Source: Dehalococcoidia bacterium
GTDB taxonomy: Bacteria > Chloroflexota > Dehalococcoidia > SM23-28-2 > RBG-16-64-32
Direction of reading: 5' to 3'
DNA: 64,000 bases
Assembly (NCBI GenBank): GCA_034408935.1
Contig: DAOUMV010000013.1
Location: 50,759 to 114,758 of the forward strand
Made by a program: the position numbers and the translations under genes. Positions 14,869 through 64,000 of this stretch are shown piece by piece. Under the pieces are notes generated by a model, which did no database searches, was not told the DNA's origin, and saw only the letters and a program-made list of their open reading frames with translations. Each line of letters opens with the position of its first letter. Positions within the stretch are counted from its first letter, which is position 1.

Positions 14869-15822
14869 ATGACCAAGCAAGACACCACCCTGCACCGGAA
14901 AGCGCCTAATGTTACCCTGCCCGACGAACCCCTTGTGACCGGCTGGGAGCTTGCCATGAGGGCGTCGGGGCGGGCCGACAAGACGTTGACGACCTACCTT
15001 GACACCCTGAATGCCCTGCGCCGCTTCCTGGCCGAGCGGGGGATGCCGGGGCTGACGGAGGTGACGACGGAGCACCTGCGCGAGTGGTTCAACGATCTGT
15101 ACCAGCGCGGGAACAAGCCCGCTACCGTCAGCGTCAGGTATCGGGCCATGCAGCAGTTCTTCAAGTGGCTCGTGACGGAGGGGGAGCGCAAGGACAATCC
15201 CCTAGAGCGAGTGGCCCCGCCCAAGGTGCCGGAGGAGCTTCAGCCCGACTATAAGCCGGAAGACATCGAGGCGATCCTCGCGGCGATCCCCGCCAACAGC
15301 AAGGACCCGCTCCTGTTGCGGGATCGGGCGATCCTTCTCACTCTGTATGACACCGGCCTGCGGGGGGCGGAGCTATGCGGCGTCATGGTCGATGATCTCG
15401 ATTGGCGCGAGTTGACGATCACCGTGCGACAAGGCAAAGCGGGCAAGCAGCGGGTCGTCAGCATCGGCCCCGTCGCGGCTCAGGCCATCGAACGCTACCT
15501 CCGGCGTCGGGGCATCGATGTTCCTTATCTCTTTGCTACGCGAGAGCAAGGCCCGATGACGCCCAACGCCATCAGGCAGATTCTAGGTCGGTTGTTCAAG
15601 CGGGCGGGCGTAGAGTTCAGGGGCACCCACGGCTTCCGGCGATCTTTCGCCCTGCAATTCCTGAACAACGGCGGCGACCCCTCCGACCTGCGGGCGATCT
15701 GTGGCTGGTCAAGCTATGCTATGCTTCGACGGTACACTGCCGCACAGGAGACGGAGCGGGCGATCCGCGCTCACCGCAAATACTCCCCTGCGTCGCATCT
15801 CAGGTTGAAGGGAAAGCGCTGA
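14869..15822 (+). CDS. int: Tyrosine-type site-specific integrase
   Basis: N-terminal SAM-like domain; catalytic R..HxxR..Y region (LRDRAILLTLYDTGLRGAEL, HGFRRSFA, LRRYT). Confidence 0.88.
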   Translation: MTKQDTTLHRKAPNVTLPDEPLVTGWELAMRASGRADKTLTTYLDTLNALRRFLAERGMPGLTEVTTEHLREWFNDLYQRGNKPATVSVRYRAMQQFFKWLVTEGERKDNPLERVAPPKVPEELQPDYKPEDIEAILAAIPANSKDPLLLRDRAILLTLYDTGLRGAELCGVMVDDLDWRELTITVRQGKAGKQRVVSIGPVAAQAIERYLRRRGIDVPYLFATREQGPMTPNAIRQILGRLFKRAGVEFRGTHGFRRSFALQFLNNGGDPSDLRAICGWSSYAMLRRYTAAQETERAIRAHRKYSPASHLRLKGKR

Positions 15823-25155: not shown

Positions 25156-25983
25156 CTATGGGCTGGGCGGCTGCTGGAAGCCCATGACCTGCCTCCCCTC
25201 CTCGATGCCCAGGCCGCGGACCACGTACTCCAGTTCCGCATCGCGCCAGGGCAGGGGAGCGGGCTCCTGAATCAGTTTGGCTTGCTTCATCTCCTCCACC
25301 ACCTGGGGATCCTCCTTCATGGGCCTGCCATACTCCATCTCGGAGAAGAGAGCCTCGAAGGGGGCCTTGCCGGTCTGGCCGCCCGCCTCCCAGGACTCGG
25401 CCGGATACCCCAAAGCCTGGACGCAAACGAGGGTGGCGGTCTCCGGAAGCTTCAGGAGCTTGTTCAGTTTGTCGACCATCGTGGGGCTGCTCATGCAGCA
25501 GGTGCCGAGACCTTCATCGTAGGCCACCGCAGTGGCCTGAGCCACAGCCTGGCCCACGTCCATGAACGCCAGCGGCGCCACGGCCGCCTGCTGCCACATG
25601 GCCCCGAACACCGGCTTCAGTGCGCGGTCTACGAGGGCCTTGGTCTCCTCTGGATTCGTACCGATGCGCCGCTGGTCGGCCAGGTCCTTGATGTCGTCGA
25701 TCCACTTGTTGACCTCATAGGCCGCCGCGTCCGAGTACCAGATGAGGAAGCAGGGGGCCGTCTGCATCTGCTGGTAGCCCAGGGGAGGCGTGAGGGCCTG
25801 GATCAGCTCAGGCGATGCCTGATCCTTCCAGACGACGATGGCCCGCGTGTTGTTGACGTTGCCCACGCAGGAGGCGCGACGGGCCGCCTCCAGCATCTTC
25901 TGCACCTTGCCCCGCTCCACGGGGCGAAAGGGGAGGAAGAATCGGATGGTCCGCCTCCGGCCTAACACCTCTTTCAGTTCCAT
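25156..25983 (-). CDS. Nitroreductase-family protein
   Basis: Nitroreductase fold signature (RRTIRFF..., conserved C-terminal helix region). Confidence 0.65.
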   Translation of the reverse strand: MELKEVLGRRRTIRFFLPFRPVERGKVQKMLEAARRASCVGNVNNTRAIVVWKDQASPELIQALTPPLGYQQMQTAPCFLIWYSDAAAYEVNKWIDDIKDLADQRRIGTNPEETKALVDRALKPVFGAMWQQAAVAPLAFMDVGQAVAQATAVAYDEGLGTCCMSSPTMVDKLNKLLKLPETATLVCVQALGYPAESWEAGGQTGKAPFEALFSEMEYGRPMKEDPQVVEEMKQAKLIQEPAPLPWRDAELEYVVRGLGIEEGRQVMGFQQPPSP

Positions 25984-27199: not shown

Positions 27200-28342
27200 T
27201 CAGCGACCCACGTCCATGAACCGCACGGCCTGAGCCAGCGCCTCCTCGAACACCGTCTCGCGGCCTTGCTTCTCCAGCTCCTCGCTGAGAAGGGCAGCTT
27301 CCGACGGCATGCCGATGCGCACCACCCGCGAGTGGCCGCCTTCGGGCATCTCGACCGTGACGGTGACGCACGTCTCGTCGTCAGGCACGCGGGTGACGGC
27401 AAGAGTGGCACGGCCCGCCGCCTCCAACCAGATGGAGTGCAGTCCCTCCCCCCGATAGGTCGACTCCGGCCTCAGCTCTACCGCCACCGCTCCGGCGGTG
27501 CCCTTGAGGCCGAAGGCCATGGCCCCCGTGCGAAACCGGCGGCCGTCTTCCAGAGCCCAACCCAAGCGCGACGCTAGCCAGCCCACCGTAAGCAGACCCT
27601 CAGCGATGTCCGGCTCACGACCGTGACGAGAGGCGATCCGCACCTCCACCCGGTCCAGCTTGTCCAGATACTGGCGGCCGGGGGGAGCATCGAAGCACTG
27701 CGCCACCAGCTCCCGCCAATGGCTGAGCCGTGACCAGTTGAGATCGCTCACGGCGACGCCGCCCTCCTCGACCAGTTGTTGGAGGCCAACGAGCGTGGAG
27801 GTCGCACGCTCAGTTTCAAAGCCCGCGCTGTCCACGACCACCCGGTCGCAGGTTTCCAGCAGCTCCCGAAACAGGTGGCCCGTCAGGGGCGGCTCGTCAT
27901 GCCACCAGAGGAAAACGGGCAGGTCGGGCACCAGCAGCGGCAGTACCGTGCCGTGGAGTTCGTCCACCGCAGGGCCGGAGGCGCGAAGGGTGATTTGCTC
28001 GCTGCATACCCGCTTGCCGCCCTCGGGGGCGATCTGACAGTGGGCGGAGATGGAGGCCTGCAGCCGGGCCGACCGCGCGCCGTGCTCAGCCACCATGATG
28101 ATGGAGCGGCTAGGGTGCCGCCCGGACACCTGCGAGATCACCTCGTTGATACGACCGGCGACATCCTGGCTTGGGGCATAGGCTATCAGGTTGAGCACAC
28201 AGGCCCGGACCACGGGCTGACCCCCCAGCGTGTCCTCAGCAGCGGCCTTCCAGAGCTGTGTGATCTCGTGTTCGATAGCGGCGATGTCCACTCGCCGCGT
28301 CTGGCCTCCCAGAACTGCCCGATAGCGATTGGAGGTGGTCAT
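27200..28342 (-). CDS. opcA: Glucose-6-phosphate dehydrogenase assembly protein OpcA
   Basis: OpcA family signature; immediately downstream of zwf with 4-nt gap. Confidence 0.8.
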   Translation of the reverse strand: MTTSNRYRAVLGGQTRRVDIAAIEHEITQLWKAAAEDTLGGQPVVRACVLNLIAYAPSQDVAGRINEVISQVSGRHPSRSIIMVAEHGARSARLQASISAHCQIAPEGGKRVCSEQITLRASGPAVDELHGTVLPLLVPDLPVFLWWHDEPPLTGHLFRELLETCDRVVVDSAGFETERATSTLVGLQQLVEEGGVAVSDLNWSRLSHWRELVAQCFDAPPGRQYLDKLDRVEVRIASRHGREPDIAEGLLTVGWLASRLGWALEDGRRFRTGAMAFGLKGTAGAVAVELRPESTYRGEGLHSIWLEAAGRATLAVTRVPDDETCVTVTVEMPEGGHSRVVRIGMPSEAALLSEELEKQGRETVFEEALAQAVRFMDVGR

Positions 28343-28346
28343 ACCC

Positions 28347-29891
28347 CTAGAGCCTCCGCCACCTGCGGCCGTCGTGCTCCATGAAATCGTCGGCCTCGTC
28401 CGGGCCCCAGGTACCCGCCTCATAGTTGGGGAACTGCGGCGCCTGCGACCGGGCCCAGCCTTCGATGATGGACGTGACGAAGGCCCACGCCGCCTCCACC
28501 TCGTCGCGGCGAGTGAAGAGGGTGGCGTCCCCCAGCATGGCGTCCAGCAGCAGGCGCTCATAGGCGTCTGGAGCGGCGAAACCGAAGGAGGTGCCGTAGC
28601 GGAAGTCCATCTCCACCGGCCGGATGCGAAGGTCCGCCTGGGGCTCCGGCACTTTGGAACCGAACTTCAGAGAGATACCCTCGTCCGGCTGGATGGTGAT
28701 GCTGAGCACGTTGGGCTCAAGACGGCTGAAATCCACGGTTGGGAAGAGGGCCAGAGGCGGCTGCCTAAACACAATGGCGATCTCCGTCACCCGCTTGGGC
28801 AGGCGCTTGCCGGCACGGATGTAGAAGGGCACACCAGCCCAACGCCAGTTGTCCACGAACAGCTTCAGCGCCATGTAGGTCTCCGCGCCCGAGTCCGCAG
28901 CCACGTTCTTTTCCTCTCGATAGCCGATCACGGACTGACCGGAGATGACGCCGGACCGGTACTGGCCACGCACCGTGAACTCTCCAGTCTCCTCGGGCCG
29001 CATAGGGCGCACGGCGCGCAGGACTTTCACCTTCTCGTCGCGGACTGCATTCGGCTCGAAGGTGGCCGGGGGCTCCATCGCCGCCAGTGAGAGGAGCTGC
29101 ATGGCGTGGTTCTGGATGATGTCCCGCACGACCCCGGCCTGCTCGTAGTAGCCGCCGCGGCTCTCAACGCCGATGCTCTCGGCCGCCGTGATCTGCACAT
29201 GGTCGATGTATCGGCGGTTCCATATCGGCTCGAAGATGCCGTTGGCAAAGCGGAACACGAGGATGTTCTGCACGGTCTCTTTCCCTAGGTAGTGGTCGAT
29301 GCGGTATATCTGGTCCTCGTCGAACACGCCGTGGAGGATCCGGTTCAGCTCCACGGCGCTGTCCAGGTCGCGGCCGAACGGCTTCTCGACTATGATGCGC
29401 GTCCAGCCGCCTTCACTGCGGGCCAGACCCGCGTCGCCGAGGCGCTGAGCGATCTCGGCGTAGTAGCTGGGGGGCGTGGCCAGGTAGTACAGGCGGTTGC
29501 GAGACCCAGTCTTGCTCTCGATCTTTTCCAGTCTCTTGGCCAGATCCCGGTAACCCTCCGGGTCACTGAATTCGGACCGGCAGTAGTAGAGACGAGAGGC
29601 GAAGCCGTCCCAGACCGGCCTTCGCAGAGGCTGCGTGCGGGAGTGCTCCGCCGCCGCCCTTCGAAGCTCTGAGCGGAAGTGGTAGTGGGCTTTGGGCCGA
29701 CGGGCGAACCCCACCGCCGAGAACTCCCCGGGCAGCAGGCCCTCCAGCGCCAGGTTGTATAGGGCAGGGACCAGCTTGCGCTGCGTCAGGTCACCAGTGG
29801 CGCCGAAGATGACCAGGGTATTCGGCTCCGGCGTCCGTGGGCTGCGCATGCCCACCCGCAGCGGGTTCTCTTCCATCTTCCGAACCATCAC
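28347..29891 (-). CDS. zwf: Glucose-6-phosphate 1-dehydrogenase
   Basis: NADP-binding GATGDL, active-site RIDHYLGKE motif. Confidence 0.93.
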   Translation of the reverse strand: MMVRKMEENPLRVGMRSPRTPEPNTLVIFGATGDLTQRKLVPALYNLALEGLLPGEFSAVGFARRPKAHYHFRSELRRAAAEHSRTQPLRRPVWDGFASRLYYCRSEFSDPEGYRDLAKRLEKIESKTGSRNRLYYLATPPSYYAEIAQRLGDAGLARSEGGWTRIIVEKPFGRDLDSAVELNRILHGVFDEDQIYRIDHYLGKETVQNILVFRFANGIFEPIWNRRYIDHVQITAAESIGVESRGGYYEQAGVVRDIIQNHAMQLLSLAAMEPPATFEPNAVRDEKVKVLRAVRPMRPEETGEFTVRGQYRSGVISGQSVIGYREEKNVAADSGAETYMALKLFVDNWRWAGVPFYIRAGKRLPKRVTEIAIVFRQPPLALFPTVDFSRLEPNVLSITIQPDEGISLKFGSKVPEPQADLRIRPVEMDFRYGTSFGFAAPDAYERLLLDAMLGDATLFTRRDEVEAAWAFVTSIIEGWARSQAPQFPNYEAGTWGPDEADDFMEHDGRRWRRL

Positions 29892-29946
29892 ATCGCGCTC
29901 ATGTCGTATGAATGGCGGACAAGCGTCGCCTCAGGCCAATCGCCTA

Positions 29947-32793
29947 TCATCCCACTGCAGCCACCGAGGCCACCGCCGACCGGAGCGCCTGGGCCACTCT
30001 GTCCAGCCCGGCTTCTGCAACGTCCGACAGGTGGAGACGGACGACCCGACGCCCCCGCCGTTGCAGGGCCTCCATGTCCCCTAACGCCTGCGCCCGCTTC
30101 AGCGTGCCGAAGGTGTACGGCTGGCCAGGGACCTCCAGATCCTTGGCGTCGTCGGCGGTCAGCATGATGAACAGGCCGTGGTCATCGCCGCCCTTGTGGA
30201 GCTGGCCGGTGGAGTGCAGGTAGCGTGGGCCGTACCCCAGGGTGGTCGCCGCCCGCGTCCCATCGCGGATCGCCAGCCGCATGGACCGAAGAGCAGCCTC
30301 CGTCGCGGGCGTACGCGTGAGGTAGGCGGCCAGGGCGATGTAGTCGCCGGGCCGGACTTGACGCAGGAAGGAGGTTAGCGCCTCCACCAGGCCGCCGTCG
30401 GTCTTCTCTCCAAACAAGACGACCCCATCCTCCTGAAGGGCAGGCGAGCCCTCAGCGAGAGTCCCCTGCGAGCGGTACGCCTCCAGCAGGCGCTTAGTGT
30501 TCCCCTTGCTCTCGGCGACGTTGGGCTCGTCGAAGGGGTTGATGTCGAGCATAGCCCCCGCGGCGGCGGTGGCCAGCTCCCAGCGAAAGAACTCGCCGCC
30601 CAGGTCGTAGGCGTCCCTCAGGTGCAGGGTGACCACAGGCTGTCCCGCCGCTGCCAGCTTGCCGACGGCCTCGTCGAGGGAGTCGCCGCCGTCCAGGCGC
30701 AGGTGGACGAACAGACGGTCATCGCCGTAGGCGGAAGGGCCGCCCAGGGTCTCGCCGTCGACGGGGAGGATGCCCTTGCCCTCCTTGCCCGTGCTCTCGG
30801 CGATGAGTTGCTCCACCCAGGCACCGAAGGAGGCCACCGCCGGGGAGACGGCCAGGGTGAGCTTGTCGCGGCCAGCCAGGGCCAGCTCGCCGAGGAGGGC
30901 GCCCAACCAGAGGCCAGGGTTCTCAGGCGCGGCCACGCAGGAAGCGCTCGCCTCGGCCATGGTCAGGCCTCGGTCCAGAAGCTTCGCCACGTCGGCGCCG
31001 GTAAGGGCCGCCGGGACGAGACCGAAGTAGGACAGGGCAGAGTAGCGGCCGCCGATGTCGGAAGGGTTAGTGAAGACGCGGCGAAACCGGTGCCGACGCG
31101 CCAGCTCCTGCAGCGGCGTGCCATCATCGGTGATGGCGACGAAGTTCTCCCCTGCGGCGTCGCCCTTGGCAGCCTTCACCCGCTCCATGAAGTAGGCGAA
31201 CAGGGAGAGCACCTCCACTGTGGTGCCCGACTTGCTGGCGACCAAGAACAGGGCCTTCGCGGGGTCCAGCGCGTTGTCCACCGCTCGGATTGAGGCCGGG
31301 TCGGTGGTGTCCAGCACCACGAGGTCCGGGTAGCCGTCGCCCACGCCGAGGGTCGAGCGCAGAACCTCCGGCGCCAGGCTGGAGCCGCCCATACCCAGAA
31401 GGACGACATACCGGTAGCCGGCGGCCCGGATCTGGTCAGCAAAGGAGGTCAGGCTGTCGCAGACGTCGGTCATCTTCTCCGCCACGGTCAGCCAGCCCAG
31501 GCGGTTCTTAATCGCCTGCTGGATCGTGGCGTCAGCGGACCAGAGGGAGGCATCCCTGGCGTGGAGTCTGGCTGCGAAGCCATCCCTCTCCAGCCGCTGC
31601 AACCTGTCGCTGACGCGCCGCTGGTGCTCCCCCAGAGCGGCGGCCTGGCGTTCCTGTACGCCGGAGAGGATAGCCGTGCGCTGGGCGGAGATACAGTCCG
31701 TGAGCTGGTGGAACGAATCGGCGAAGAGCTTGACCCCGTCCTCCAAGAGCTGCGCCGTGATCTCGTCCATGTCGATGCCGAACCTGGCCAGAGCTGCCAG
31801 GCTGGCCTCGGCCTCCTCCAGACCCTCCTCGAGCGAGGGCCGCACGACCCCGTGGTCGCGGAAGGCGTCCAGGGTGGCCGGGGGCATGGTGTTGACGGTG
31901 TCGGGGCCGATGAGTGGCTCCACGTACATGACGTCGCTGTAGCTGGGGCTCTTGGTGCCGGTGCTGGCCCACAGGGGCCGCTGGACGCGGGCGCCCTTCT
32001 CCCTCAGGGCCTGGAAGCGTTGGCTGCCGAAGATCGTCTTGAAGCGAGCGTAAGCCAGCTTGGCGTTGGCGATGGCCGCCTTGCCCAGGAGCGCCTCTTC
32101 CCCCGCCCTGCGTGCGTCGTCCTCCGTCTCCCGGATAAGCGCCTCCAGCCTGTGGTCCACCAGCGTGTCCACGCGGCTAAGGAAGAAGCTGGCCACCGAG
32201 GCGACCCGCGTCACGTCGCCGCCGGCCGCGGCGAGTCTCTCCAGGCCAGCGACGTAGGCGTTGGCGGCCTGCTCGTAGGCGCTCAGGGAGAAGAGCAGGG
32301 TGACGTTGACGTTGACTCCTTCGCCGATGAGTTGCTCGATGGCGGGCATGCCCTCGGGCGTGCCGGGGACTTTGATCATCACGTTGGGTCGGTCAACGGC
32401 GGCGAACAGCCGACGCGCCTCCTCGACCGTCGCCTGCGTGTCATAGGCCAGATCCGGGGAGACTTCGAGGCTGACGAAGCCGTCGGCGCCGTCCAGCGAA
32501 TCGTAAACGGGGCGAAAGAGGTCGGCCGCGGCCTGGATGTCCTCCACGGCCAGCGCCTCGTAGATCTCGCCCGTGCTTCTCCCTTCCTGAGCGAGCGCTC
32601 GCAGCGCGTCGTCGTAGTCGTGACTGCCGGAGATCGCCTTCTCGAAGTAGGTGGGGTTGGATGTCTGACCGCGCAGCCCATCCTCCTCGATAAGCCTTTT
32701 CAGCTCACCGGAGAGCGTCTGGTTCCGGCGGATGTAGTCCTGCCAGACGCTCTGGCCCTGCCTCTCAAGCTCTCGCAACGGGTTCGCAGCCAT
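29947..32793 (-). CDS. tal-pgi: Bifunctional transaldolase / glucose-6-phosphate isomerase fusion
   Basis: N-terminal transaldolase (GQTSNPT, active-site Lys region) and C-terminal PGI (LLGMGGSSLAPE SIS domains). Confidence 0.88.
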   Translation of the reverse strand: MAANPLRELERQGQSVWQDYIRRNQTLSGELKRLIEEDGLRGQTSNPTYFEKAISGSHDYDDALRALAQEGRSTGEIYEALAVEDIQAAADLFRPVYDSLDGADGFVSLEVSPDLAYDTQATVEEARRLFAAVDRPNVMIKVPGTPEGMPAIEQLIGEGVNVNVTLLFSLSAYEQAANAYVAGLERLAAAGGDVTRVASVASFFLSRVDTLVDHRLEALIRETEDDARRAGEEALLGKAAIANAKLAYARFKTIFGSQRFQALREKGARVQRPLWASTGTKSPSYSDVMYVEPLIGPDTVNTMPPATLDAFRDHGVVRPSLEEGLEEAEASLAALARFGIDMDEITAQLLEDGVKLFADSFHQLTDCISAQRTAILSGVQERQAAALGEHQRRVSDRLQRLERDGFAARLHARDASLWSADATIQQAIKNRLGWLTVAEKMTDVCDSLTSFADQIRAAGYRYVVLLGMGGSSLAPEVLRSTLGVGDGYPDLVVLDTTDPASIRAVDNALDPAKALFLVASKSGTTVEVLSLFAYFMERVKAAKGDAAGENFVAITDDGTPLQELARRHRFRRVFTNPSDIGGRYSALSYFGLVPAALTGADVAKLLDRGLTMAEASASCVAAPENPGLWLGALLGELALAGRDKLTLAVSPAVASFGAWVEQLIAESTGKEGKGILPVDGETLGGPSAYGDDRLFVHLRLDGGDSLDEAVGKLAAAGQPVVTLHLRDAYDLGGEFFRWELATAAAGAMLDINPFDEPNVAESKGNTKRLLEAYRSQGTLAEGSPALQEDGVVLFGEKTDGGLVEALTSFLRQVRPGDYIALAAYLTRTPATEAALRSMRLAIRDGTRAATTLGYGPRYLHSTGQLHKGGDDHGLFIMLTADDAKDLEVPGQPYTFGTLKRAQALGDMEALQRRGRRVVRLHLSDVAEAGLDRVAQALRSAVASVAAVG

Positions 32794-57155: not shown

Positions 57156-58223
57156 TCAAGGGGTGGAAGGCGATGCGGATGACGCCGCCTCAACTCTGAA
57201 CGTTCGCACTTCTTCGTACGTCGCGTCATCACGGAGTTCCTCCGCAAGGAACTCAACCCAATCATCCGTATACAGATAGTCGCCGTGTGGCTCGTCGTAC
57301 TGGCAGTACTTGGTCTGGCAGTCAACTGGGTCTTGGGCACCGACAGGCGGGCGTACCTCCCAGTGCTTCCATGCCCGTGTGTGCGTGTCCATGTTGAACG
57401 CCTTTGGTGCTATCTTCGCGGCTACCAGCGGCACGACGTGAGAGGGCTTGAGCTTGCCCTTGCTCACTACAGCCACTGTTCGCGGCTTAATAAGAGCCAC
57501 CGTCTTGTCGTATTCTCGCGTGTGGTCAGGATCATAGTGCACGAACTCTACCGCTAGGGCGTCCTTTGAACGATGGCCTGCAAGCATAGGGATGAGGAAG
57601 ACCTTGTAACTGTAAGCCATATCACCCAGAACGTCTGGGCTCAGGGAACTCCGAAAGTCGGCCACGTAGGTCTTGATGTCAGCATTGGCAGGTGCAGATA
57701 GCAAGCGCCGCATCGCTTCTCGAGCCTTCGGGTCTCGCGCTCTGGAAAACTGCAGTGAGAAGGCGAGATTCGTGTCAAGCGCAAGGCGATCACTAAACTC
57801 CTGCACGAGGAAGTCTTCGAAGTTGATCAAGAGGGCCTGACACTCTCCAAAGATGTCAAGATCGATTTCGGGCGCATCAGCGTGTTCAATCAAGTTCCGC
57901 AGGCCGATGAAGAACCGCAGATTCTGCCTAGTCGCGTCGTCTTTTTGGCCCCAGTGCTGGCGAACGCATTCACTCAGATCCCAGGTCTTCGGTCTGCCGT
58001 CAATCCGCTCGAAGTGGATAGAGTTTGGCCTTCGGTACCAGGGTTTGATTCCGCGTTTCCAGAAGACTGCGTGGAAGAGGGCGGCCCAGGCCAGGTGCAT
58101 CGGAACTACGTACGTGCCCGATTTGAACGTGGTCAACGGATTGTTGTAGGCACCGACAGCGTGAAGCGCTTGTTGCCGCGCCTTGGCTACCAGTTGTCGC
58201 GCCCTAGATACGCCTCTTGGCAT
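57156..58223 (-). CDS. Low-GC hypothetical protein with Rx4H (HEPN-like) motif; possible Abi-type defence protein
   Basis: Local GC ~52-55% vs ~68% background; motif LRNLIEH; 355 aa. Confidence 0.5.
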   Translation of the reverse strand: MPRGVSRARQLVAKARQQALHAVGAYNNPLTTFKSGTYVVPMHLAWAALFHAVFWKRGIKPWYRRPNSIHFERIDGRPKTWDLSECVRQHWGQKDDATRQNLRFFIGLRNLIEHADAPEIDLDIFGECQALLINFEDFLVQEFSDRLALDTNLAFSLQFSRARDPKAREAMRRLLSAPANADIKTYVADFRSSLSPDVLGDMAYSYKVFLIPMLAGHRSKDALAVEFVHYDPDHTREYDKTVALIKPRTVAVVSKGKLKPSHVVPLVAAKIAPKAFNMDTHTRAWKHWEVRPPVGAQDPVDCQTKYCQYDEPHGDYLYTDDWVEFLAEELRDDATYEEVRTFRVEAASSASPSTP

Positions 58224-60522: not shown

Positions 60523-61134
60523 TCAGCGCTGGGGGGCCTGGCCCCACTTCTCCCAGAAGACGATGTTCTCTGTCGGCATACGCATGGTAGGGCCGAACTT
60601 GCCGCGGGGCCAGCCGATGGGGATGAGGGCCATCGTTTCGACGCCATCCGGTATGCCCAGGAGCTGCTTCACCTCCGCCTCGTGGGTGCGGTAGACGGTG
60701 GTGAGGGTGGCACCGAGGCCGAGGGCGCGGGCGGCCAGCATGAGGTTCTGGACAGCGGGGTAGATGGAGGCGCCCGGCGGGGAGACGGGAGCGACCATAG
60801 AGTGGTTAACGGTGGCGATGATGAGGACGGGCACCTCCGCCAGGTGGTTAGCCAGATGGTCGGCGGAGCCGTAGGTCTTGGCGAGGGCGGGGCTAGCCAT
60901 GGCCGCTTCCCTGAAGGGGCCGTACGCCGTGTTCCAGCCATCGAGATACCACTCGGCGATCCTGGCCTTAGTGTCTGGATCCCGCACGACAATGAAGTTC
61001 CAGGGCTGGCGATTGCCGCCGCTGGGAGCCTTGACAGCAGCGTCCAGCAGCTGCCAGATGAGCTCGTCGGGGACGGGGTCGGGCTTGAGGCGGCGCATGG
61101 CGCGCTGGGTGTTGATTGCCTCGAAGATATCCAT
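60523..61134 (-). CDS. Nitroreductase-family protein (203 aa)
   Basis: Nitroreductase N-terminal RAMRRLKPDPVPDE...NRQPWNFIVV; true start at MDIF, upstream 213 codons of six-frame ORF are non-coding overlap. Confidence 0.8.
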   Translation of the reverse strand: MDIFEAINTQRAMRRLKPDPVPDELIWQLLDAAVKAPSGGNRQPWNFIVVRDPDTKARIAEWYLDGWNTAYGPFREAAMASPALAKTYGSADHLANHLAEVPVLIIATVNHSMVAPVSPPGASIYPAVQNLMLAARALGLGATLTTVYRTHEAEVKQLLGIPDGVETMALIPIGWPRGKFGPTMRMPTENIVFWEKWGQAPQR

Positions 61135-61213: not shown

Positions 61214-62032
61214 CTAGAGAGAAACCTCTCGTAGGAAGGCGATAAGCGCCTCGTTGAACGCCTGCGGCTGCTCCAGCGGCGCGACGTGGCCGCAGTCCGG
61301 GAGCACCGCCTTGCGGGCGTGGGACAGGTTCTCGGCCAGAACGTCGGCCACGAGATGGAAATCGGGGATGTCCATCTCGCCGACGAGGACGAGCGTGAGC
61401 GCTCCGATCTCGTGCAGCCGCTCAATGACAGTGGGGGAGTAGGCCGGAGGCACCGCGTCCTCGCGGTAGTCGGCAGCCGGGAAGGCCAGCACCATCTCCC
61501 GCACCCGCTGGAAACGGTCGGGGAAGCGGCGCAGGCCGTCGAACAGGGGGTGGGTGAGCCACAGCCGCTCGAACGCTGCGCGCGGCCCGTCCGCTCGGAC
61601 AGCGGCCACCAGTTCCTCGATTTGAACGGAGAACTCATCGGAGTAGGCGAAGCCGGGAAGGGCGGAATCGACCAGGGTGAGGGAGAGGACGCGGGCGGGA
61701 AAGTCCAGGGCGAACTGAAGGGCGATGCCGCCGCCCATAGAGAGACCAACGACGTGGGAGGCGTCCACGCCAAGGCCCTCCATCAGGTCGCGCAGGTCGG
61801 CGGCGTAGTTCTCCCAGGTGTAGCCTGTGGGCGGCGCCGTGCTGCGCCCGTGGCCGCGGACGTCGTAGCGAATCACGCGGTAGCCGGCGGCGGTCAGCGC
61901 CGGCACCTGCTCGTCCCACAGGCGCAGGTCAGCCGAGTGCCCGTGGATGAGGACGACGGGCGGGCCTGAGACCCCAACGAGGGCGGAATCCTCGAAGTAG
62001 ATCTCGATGCCGTTGGCGTTCAGTTGGGGCAC
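61214..62032 (-). CDS. Alpha/beta hydrolase
   Basis: HGHS oxyanion region, GLSMGG nucleophile elbow, C-terminal CGH. Confidence 0.82.
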   Translation of the reverse strand: MPQLNANGIEIYFEDSALVGVSGPPVVLIHGHSADLRLWDEQVPALTAAGYRVIRYDVRGHGRSTAPPTGYTWENYAADLRDLMEGLGVDASHVVGLSMGGGIALQFALDFPARVLSLTLVDSALPGFAYSDEFSVQIEELVAAVRADGPRAAFERLWLTHPLFDGLRRFPDRFQRVREMVLAFPAADYREDAVPPAYSPTVIERLHEIGALTLVLVGEMDIPDFHLVADVLAENLSHARKAVLPDCGHVAPLEQPQAFNEALIAFLREVSL

Positions 62033-62048
62033 TGGCAGAACCTACAGC

Positions 62049-62693
62049 TTAGCGCTCCAGGAGGAAGTCACCGGTGCCAATAGCGGGCCGGGGCGGCGGC
62101 AGGGAGCCCTCGGCGGGGTAGCCCAGGAGGACCAAGAACACGGGCTCCCAGCGGGACGGCAGGTCTAGGCCCTCCGTCACCGCCGACTGGCAGAAGAGGG
62201 GAGCCCCCTTCAGATAGCCGCCGAGGCCGCGGGCGTGGGCGGCCAACAGCAGGTTCTGGAGGGCAGCGCCGAGGCTTTGCACGTACATATCGCGCTCGGC
62301 GCGGCGGCGCCGACGATCCGGCCAGCGGCGGGCGCGGTCCAACTCTAGGCAGGCAAGGAGGAGCATCGGCGCCTCCGTGAGCTGCCGACGCGAACGGGCC
62401 AGCGATCTCTCGACGGCTTCCGGCGGCTGGCGATCGGCCTCGAAGTCGGCACGCCAGGCGGCCGCCATTGCCTCAACGAGGCGGGGGCGCGAATCGGGCG
62501 TGATCTCGACGAAGCGCCAGGGGCGGCTGTGGTGGGGGGCGGGGGCGGCGCAGGCGGCCGCGACGAGCTCTCGCAGGAGATCGCGCGGCACCTCGCGGCG
62601 TGCGAAGCGGCGGACGGAACGTCGACCGGCGATCGCCTCCGAGACGTCCATCGCGTCAGGCGGTGCGGCCAGCGCCTGCCTGCCGGTAGGCAT
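62049..62693 (-). CDS. Standalone nitroreductase-like protein, FbiB C-terminal-domain-like (putative dehydro-F420-0 reductase)
   Basis: Nitroreductase fold (RRSVRRF...); immediately downstream of and overlapping cofC/cofD. Confidence 0.5.
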   Translation of the reverse strand: MPTGRQALAAPPDAMDVSEAIAGRRSVRRFARREVPRDLLRELVAAACAAPAPHHSRPWRFVEITPDSRPRLVEAMAAAWRADFEADRQPPEAVERSLARSRRQLTEAPMLLLACLELDRARRWPDRRRRRAERDMYVQSLGAALQNLLLAAHARGLGGYLKGAPLFCQSAVTEGLDLPSRWEPVFLVLLGYPAEGSLPPPRPAIGTGDFLLER

Positions 62694-63339
62694 GACTCAG
62701 CCGCTCGGCGATACGGAGTTGGGCCAGCAATCGGTGGGTGGCGGTCTCGGCGGGACGGGCCAGCAGGTCGGCCAGGTCGTCCGGCTCGTCCACGTCGCGG
62801 GAGAGCGACGCCAGGTGAAGGACGCGGGCGGGCAGGCCGCGGGCGACGGCCTCCCGCTTGTGGGACGCGGACGACCGGCGTCCGAAGCGGAAGGGGATGG
62901 CGTCCGGCGGGCGCAGGGCGATGGCACCGGTGCCTCGATCGTCGGTGGGGACGTGGGCGATGCCGCGTTCGGGGAGGGCATCCAGAAGCGCCTCGATCTC
63001 CGGGGGTGAGACGGCGGGGAGGTCAGCGGCGACGACCAGGAGGGCATCGGCGCCCCCGTCTGACAGGACAGCCGAGGCGTGGGCCAGGGCCTGATTCACG
63101 CCCCGACAGAGGGGCGGCTCGTTGAGGGGATCGGCACCCAGCTTCTCGGCGCGAGCCAGCACTTCGGCGTCGGGGCTGACCACAGCCATGTGCTCGACAC
63201 TAGGCACGCCCTGTAGGGCCCGCAGCACGTCCTCCAGCATCGCCAGGGCGAGGCGTCGCCGCTCGTCCTGCGTGAGCAGGGCGGCCAGGCGCCCCTTGGC
63301 CTCGCCGAGCGCCTTCACGGGGACGAGGGCGGCGATCAC
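62656..63339 (-). CDS. cofC: 2-phospho-L-lactate (or PEP) guanylyltransferase, F420 biosynthesis
   Basis: MIAALVPVKALGEAKGRL N-terminus and nucleotidyltransferase fold typical of CofC/FbiD. Confidence 0.8.
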   Translation of the reverse strand: MIAALVPVKALGEAKGRLAALLTQDERRRLALAMLEDVLRALQGVPSVEHMAVVSPDAEVLARAEKLGADPLNEPPLCRGVNQALAHASAVLSDGGADALLVVAADLPAVSPPEIEALLDALPERGIAHVPTDDRGTGAIALRPPDAIPFRFGRRSSASHKREAVARGLPARVLHLASLSRDVDEPDDLADLLARPAETATHRLLAQLRIAERLSHAYRQAGAGRTA

Positions 63340-64000
63340 GATGCGATTCCGGCGGCGCGCAGGGACGCGCGGGCGAGCGCGGCCTTCTTCTCCATCGAGT
63401 CCATTATGGTGTCGGTGACAGTCACCGCCAAGCCCATCGCCTCGATCTCCGGCGCGAGCTCCGCGTCCACGTTATCAATCACGATAGCGTCCAGAAAGTC
63501 GACATAAAGGCGCGCAACGGCGCTCGCGCTCGCGTCGAGCCCCTGGTCGCGAAGCATCTTAGCGGCAGGTCCCTTGATCGTCGCCCCGCCGACGATTGGG
63601 CTCACGGCGACAACCTCCGCCGCCGTCTGGCAGAGCGCGTCGTGGAGGCCGGGGACCGCGAGGATAGGGCCGATTGAAACGAAGGGGTTGGAGGGCGTGA
63701 GGATGACAGCATCGGCGTCGGCGATAGCCTCGACTACGCCGGGGGCAGGGCGGGCCTCCTCCGCGCCATCGAACAGAACCTCTCGCACGGGGTCAGCAGC
63801 GCCACGACGCACGAACCACTCCTGGAACTCGAGAACGCCGTCGCCGGTGCGGACTTTGGTGCGCAGGAAGTCGTCGGTCCCGGGGAGGACACGGGCGGGC
63901 ACGCCCAGGGCGCGGGCGATCTCGGCGGTGGCCTCGGACAGGGTACGGCCGCGCCGGAGGAGGTCGGTGCGGGTGACGCAGGTGGCGAGGTCAAGGTCGC
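63336..64000 (-). CDS. cofD: LPPG:FO 2-phospho-L-lactate transferase, partial (N-terminus beyond window)
   Basis: CofD C-terminal motifs (VLPGTDD, FQEWFV, ILTPSNPFVSIGPIL); frame open to window edge. Confidence 0.8.
   Translation of the reverse strand, partial: DLDLATCVTRTDLLRRGRTLSEATAEIARALGVPARVLPGTDDFLRTKVRTGDGVLEFQEWFVRRGAADPVREVLFDGAEEARPAPGVVEAIADADAVILTPSNPFVSIGPILAVPGLHDALCQTAAEVVAVSPIVGGATIKGPAAKMLRDQGLDASASAVARLYVDFLDAIVIDNVDAELAPEIEAMGLAVTVTDTIMDSMEKKAALARASLRAAGIAS

Follow-up and report, generated by a model that had tools for sequence, protein, structure and literature searches.

The window, a 64,000-nucleotide (64-kb) stretch of contig DAOUMV010000013.1 from the Dehalococcoidia bacterium assembly GCA_034408935.1, carries near its end a partial cofD gene, a cofC gene and a nitroreductase gene, here called NTR1. 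From sequence comparison we consider it highly probable (roughly 85%) that NTR1 is a stand-alone dehydro-F420 reductase of the type represented by FbiB's C-terminal domain (FbiB-C), situated in the F420-0 assembly module of a Dehalococcoidia-type Chloroflexota genome. The initial annotation of this DNA had suggested that the organism uses a route from phosphoenolpyruvate (PEP) through dehydro-F420-0 with a separate, free-standing reductase, and this suggestion is supported by the match of NTR1 to FbiB-C, by its substrate-pocket residues, by the synteny with cofD and cofC, and by a CofC of the type that uses 2-phospho-L-lactate (2-PL) or PEP. The features concerned are as follows.

63336 to the window end (64000), minus strand: cofD / fbiA, partial (PF01933, E = 4e-36; TIGR01819, 204 bits).
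62656-63339, minus strand: cofC / fbiD guanylyltransferase, 227 amino acids, GTG start (PF01983; TIGR03552, 163 bits, cutoff 105).
62049-62651, minus strand: NTR1, stand-alone FbiB-C-type nitroreductase (FbiE-like, predicted dehydro-F420-0 reductase), 200 amino acids (PF00881, TIGR03553; start placed from homologues).
62652-62693, minus strand: in-frame 14-codon upstream extension of the NTR1 open reading frame, lying within the 3' end of cofC.

The family matches bear out the three gene identities that had been proposed, and the 4-nt overlap described between cofD and cofC was also found, the sequence GTGA at 63336-63339 combining the TGA stop of cofD with the GTG start of cofC. The part of cofD in the window is the 3' two-thirds of a gene of the 2-phospho-L-lactate transferase family, and it covers positions 91-299 of the 301 positions in the TIGR01819 profile before the window end cuts the gene. 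The complete cofD on the source contig (L001, 2247-3179) encodes 310 amino acids, and it shows 53% identity to the cofD of Thermomicrobium roseum. A protein identical to NTR1 is recorded in assembly GCA_964417775.1, on contig CAYQIW010000008.1 (108 kb), and in the Logan assembly of SRR14802572. On the former contig, which ends 3.8 kb past the NTR1 gene, genes for a GNAT acetyltransferase and an enoyl-CoA hydratase lie 5' of cofD.

NTR1 matches the PF00881 profile over its whole length (positions 1-167 of 167, E = 2.7e-29). Among the NCBIfam models, it matches TIGR03553 (FbiB C-terminal domain) over the full profile (positions 1-194) with 172 bits, and also the C-terminal half (positions 254-449) of PRK13294, the model for full-length FbiB; on the other nitroreductase models it scores 71 bits for BluB and 40 bits for NfsA. 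Its best match in the PDB is the C-terminal domain of Mycobacterium tuberculosis FbiB (4XOM/4XOO/4XOQ; 135 bits, E = 2.4e-38), followed by the next nitroreductase at 63 bits. When 1.84 billion representatives of 50%-identity clusters were searched with NTR1, 60 proteins were found at E ≤ 1e-30, and the top representatives were a mixture of stand-alone proteins of about 200 amino acids and proteins of 390-506 amino acids that matched by their C-terminal part, the fused FbiB form. A neighbour-joining tree of 92 sequences (100 bootstraps) placed NTR1 within this mixed set; in 88/100 bootstraps, one clade united NTR1 with FbiB-C of M. tuberculosis and the nitroreductase of T. roseum, leaving the two other nitroreductases of the window (NTR2 and NTR3, see below) and the nitroreductase PDB 4DN2 outside. 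The model scores, the PDB match and the tree thus agree that NTR1 is FbiB-C-like rather than a generic nitroreductase, and the phylogeny, which the initial annotation had named as a check, groups NTR1 as it had anticipated.

In the modelled dehydro-F420-0 pocket of M. tuberculosis FbiB, P289 and M372 make up the site of the methylene group, and R337 binds the carboxylate (Bashiri et al., PMC6450877). Residues P39, R86 and M122 of NTR1 (in the 200-aa form) align with P289, R337 and M372, respectively, and the mapping to the M. tuberculosis numbering can be taken as valid because the named residue types occur at all three predicted positions. The neighbouring H40 of NTR1 corresponds to H290, and a His is found there in 85 of the 86 representatives; the motif APAPHH is identical in the two proteins. 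Furthermore, R10, R11, S12 and R14 of NTR1 align with R260, R261, S262 and R264 of the M. tuberculosis protein, which form its FMN-binding RRSxR motif. In the alignment, NTR2, NTR3 and 4DN2 have no equivalents of P289, H290, R337 or M372.

To classify the CofC of the window, we took as marks of the 2-PL/PEP type a Gly and not a Ser at the position of FbiD G163, no His at the equivalent of T152 in the M. smegmatis protein, and the Mg-binding aspartates. A Ser at the position equivalent to G163 has been described as diagnostic for the use of 3-phosphoglycerate (3-PG) (PMC8764529). Alignment with M. tuberculosis FbiD (6BWG/6BWH) showed that K17, D116, S166, D188 and D190 are kept in the window CofC, and that its residues at G163 and T146 are Gly and Thr, respectively, whereas the 3-PG-activating enzyme (7P97) carries Ser where the window protein carries Gly. 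Since Gly occupies the diagnostic position, the window CofC is, as judged from its sequence, of the 2-PL/PEP type and not of the 3-PG type. A 3-PG-type CofC, which would make a reductase unnecessary, was ruled out by the same residue.

The proposed pathway would proceed in the following way. CofC, being FbiD-type, would join PEP and GTP to give enolpyruvyl-diphospho-guanosine, and CofD, being FbiA-type, would move the enolpyruvyl phosphate onto the deazaflavin FO to give dehydro-F420-0. The nitroreductase would then reduce the enol double bond with FMNH2, giving F420-0, to which a separate CofE encoded elsewhere would add glutamates. We infer the use of PEP rather than 2-PL because the reductase is present; the reductase activity itself is likewise predicted, and cofE and the FO synthase would be located elsewhere in the genome.

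The gene order cofD-cofC-NTR1 is kept wherever a related Chloroflexota locus extends far enough to reveal it, namely in seven loci (L007, L008, L010, L011, L012, L031 and L035) whose nitroreductases share 54-81% identity with NTR1. For a distant stand-alone homologue, whose cluster also contains a protein of a Thermoprotei archaeon, the gene sits immediately upstream of cofD and overlaps it by 4 nt. NTR1 is a single-domain protein whose reading frame lies between the upstream cofC stop and its own stop at 62049, and a tblastn search with four FbiB N-domains found no CofE-like sequence in the window or within 10 kb in the related loci. Note that a scan of the genome collection with NTR1 returned only seven close Chloroflexota loci and unrelated proteobacterial nitroreductases; its reach did not extend to T. 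roseum.

Several observations weigh against this assignment. The score of NTR1 on TIGR03553 (172.2 bits) is below the trusted cutoff of 249.55; cofE, cofG, cofH and fbiC were not found among the called genes in the window; and in vitro CofC assays cannot separate 2-PL from PEP (PMC8764529). As regards the score, two controls also fell below the cutoff, the nitroreductase of the T. roseum cluster with 163.4 bits and a fused FbiB representative that passes PRK13294 with 216.5 bits, and because of this the cutoff does not discriminate among non-actinobacterial members; it reflects a narrow actinobacterial seed set. We regard it as very improbable that NTR1 belongs to the generic flavin or nitro reductases that use NAD(P)H (NfsA/NfsB/BluB-like) and adjoins cofC by chance, even though it belongs to the large PF00881 superfamily, misses the cutoff, and shares the window with two further generic nitroreductases. 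The generic enzymes (NfsA, NfsB, BluB, 4DN2) do have the PF00881 fold and an N-terminal RRSxR in common with NTR1; however, NTR1 reaches only ≤71 bits on their NCBIfam models and ≤63 bits against them in the PDB, so that the FbiB-C model stands above BluB by 100 bits and above NfsA by 130 bits, and the FbiB-C structure 72 bits over the next nitroreductase. They also lack the equivalents of H290, R337 and M372, and within the window the substrate-pocket residues occur in NTR1 only. Chance adjacency is further opposed by the distance of 4 nt between NTR1 and cofC and by the linkage to cofC/cofD, which holds over identities of 81% to about 49% and in the archaeal homologue.

The question of the CofC substrate gives room for another explanation, in which F420-0 is made from 2-PL, as proposed for archaea, and the FbiE-like protein has some other F420-related role than the reduction of dehydro-F420, such as aiding the elongation of the glutamate tail by CofE or binding F420. 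The sequence of CofC cannot settle the substrate, 2-PL having been the most efficient one in vitro for all CofC enzymes assayed (PMC8764529), and the FbiB C-domain was reported to be necessary for full glutamyl-ligase activity before its role as a reductase was found (PMC6450877). This explanation nevertheless seems quite improbable to us: bacteria are not known to have an enzyme that forms 2-PL (PMC6450877), NTR1 retains P289 and M372 of the methylene pocket, and T. roseum, with its homologous stand-alone nitroreductase, is reported to pass through dehydro-F420 (PMC8764529, PMC8498797). Reduction of dehydro-F420-0 by NTR1 is the reading that we retain.

The initial annotation gave the nitroreductase a length of 214 amino acids and an overlap of 38 nt with cofC, both of which appear to be artefacts of taking the longest open reading frame (62049-62693, opened by the ATG at 62693). 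Among the 120 closest homologues, nearly all have a length of about 200 amino acids, and the RRSxR motif begins at residue 10 in 90 of the 108 homologues that have it, which corresponds to a start at the equivalent of Met15, the ATG at 62651; the motif begins at residue 24 only in NTR1 itself (P0001) and one other of these 120. The family models and the FbiB structure align to the 214-aa form only from residue 17-19. In the relatives L031 and L035, the nitroreductase gene begins 3-4 nt past the cofC stop, and a start at 62651 gives the window the comparable arrangement TGA-CGCG-ATG, with a 4-nt spacer and no overlap. The gene is thus most likely 62049-62651, encoding 200 amino acids, and the 14-codon extension is probably not translated as part of NTR1, as far as homologous starts can tell. 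That the protein is truly 214 amino acids long and overlaps cofC is unlikely: the ATG at 62693 is used in the public gene call for the contig and in one homologue of 82% identity, but no model or structure matches the first 14-16 residues of this form, and the extension falls inside the conserved 3' end of cofC.

The arrangement itself is already known from the model that Braga et al. published for T. roseum in 2020 (Appl Environ Microbiol 86:e00457-20), and the window locus is a further example of it. According to PMC8764529 and PMC8498797, both citing Braga 2020, T. roseum and related Thermomicrobia make F420 via dehydro-F420, which a stand-alone nitroreductase reduces; the name FbiE was given to the stand-alone enzyme by Grinter and Greening 2021 (PMC8498797). 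The T. roseum megaplasmid NC_011961.1 carries the cluster cofD-cofC-DMT transporter-nitroreductase, and judging from its position in this cluster, the nitroreductase WP_012643075.1 is presumably the enzyme assayed by Braga et al. NTR1 shares 49% identity with WP_012643075.1 (E = 4e-45). Both are single-domain proteins of the nitroreductase fold (about 200-225 amino acids) with no fused CofE domain, the gene of each is downstream of cofD-cofC and shares their strand, and their TIGR03553 scores are close (163 bits for the T. roseum protein, 172 bits for NTR1). The two loci differ in that a DMT transporter gene separates cofC from the nitroreductase gene in T. roseum, whereas NTR1 follows cofC directly, and in that FbiB R337 corresponds to Gly in the T. 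roseum protein but to Arg, as in M. tuberculosis, in NTR1. The former locus is on a Thermomicrobia megaplasmid and the latter on a 108-kb contig of a Dehalococcoidia-type metagenome-assembled genome.

Compared with the M. tuberculosis FbiB C-domain, NTR1 has 41.5% identity over 183 residues and has in common with it APAPHH, P289, H290, R337, M372 and the RRSxR motif for the FMN phosphate. The same chemistry, FMNH2-dependent reduction of dehydro-F420-0, is predicted for both, although NTR1 is not fused to a CofE-like glutamyl ligase.

A Dehalococcoidia-type Chloroflexota lineage thereby joins the organisms predicted to make F420 via dehydro-F420 and a separate reductase, and cofD-cofC-fbiE forms in it a compact conserved module, tighter than in T. 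roseum. The understanding of the pathway is unchanged by this locus. The assignment would be of use for annotation, as such genes now carry the label 'nitroreductase family protein' or the incorrect 'F420-0:glutamate ligase', and it may guide the choice of small reductases for heterologous F420 production.

With regard to the present annotation of stand-alone FbiE proteins, they miss the TIGR03553 cutoff and are consequently given only the former name. Several of them carry the JGI label F420-0:glutamate ligase, which is wrong because the proteins are about 200 amino acids long and have no CofE domain. In one of the cluster representatives (P0190, 535 amino acids), the FbiB-C-like domain is N-terminal (residues 11-192) and about 330 more residues come after it, a fusion architecture unlike that of FbiB.

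Besides the F420 module, the window contains the following genes that are relevant here.

61214-62032, minus strand: alpha/beta hydrolase, 272 amino acids (PF00561, E = 2e-32; PcaD-like, below every NCBIfam cutoff).
60523-61134, minus strand: NTR2, generic nitroreductase, 203 amino acids (PF00881; TIGR03553, 43 bits; BluB, 90 bits, cutoff 150).
25156-25983: NTR3, nitroreductase (PF00881; no TIGR03553 match; adjoins CoA-transferase genes).

The alpha/beta hydrolase gene lies 16 nt downstream of NTR1 on the same strand and is possibly co-transcribed with it; the loci L006, L008, L009 and L010 have it in this place too, but L012, L031 and L035 lack it. After a gap of 79 nt, NTR2 follows on the same strand. 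A scan for promoters and terminators from cofD to NTR2 yielded no interpretable signal: within cofD there was a single weak promoter-like site, and between the genes the coding strand showed no terminator.

NTR2 has 27% identity to NTR1 and 31% to WP_012643075.1, and it was ruled out as the dehydro-F420 reductase by its 43 bits on TIGR03553 and the missing pocket residues; NTR3, which lacks these residues too and does not match TIGR03553, was likewise discarded. NTR2 is found downstream of the F420 module in six to seven related loci (L006, L009, L010, L012, L031 and L035 among them), where its conservation, at 76-89% identity, is higher than that of the FbiE-like gene (62-81%); the T. roseum cluster lacks it. 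To our knowledge, no physiological source of FMNH2 has been identified. In vitro, Fre of Escherichia coli served as the supplier (PMC6450877). The hydrolase and NTR2 might be dedicated accessories of the F420 module, with NTR2, for example, providing FbiE with FMNH2 as an NAD(P)H:FMN reductase, but we consider such a role quite improbable. The two genes occur together only in relatives that are fairly close and have the unrelated neighbours APH and MgsA in common as well, and they do not do so in T. roseum or in L008. NTR2 could be a flavin reductase partner, or the gene order, APH and MgsA included, could simply be conserved.

Called genes with their Pfam families take up nearly the whole window, and neither Fgd/LLM nor FDOR families were seen among them. 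The initial annotation had read the two additional nitroreductase genes (60523-61134 and 25156-25983) as consistent with an F420- and flavin-rich redox repertoire. Both are genuine PF00881 members, but an F420-rich repertoire finds no support within the window because no F420-dependent enzyme family was seen among its called genes. At 29947-32793 on the minus strand, there is a 948-aa fused transaldolase/phosphoglucose isomerase, and downstream of it (about 27200-29891) are genes for an NADP-type glucose-6-phosphate dehydrogenase (PF00479) and OpcA; this oxidative pentose-phosphate cluster (approximately 27200-32793) is without an F420-dependent Fgd. A DUF3644 gene (57156-58223, minus strand) comes directly after the gene for an MgsA-type AAA ATPase, and the relatives L031, L032 and L035 have other genes at its position, which suggests a variable spot. 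Finally, a tyrosine recombinase of the phage-integrase family with an N-terminal SAM-like domain is encoded at 14869-15822 on the plus strand, and it may be either XerC/D or the integrase of a mobile element.

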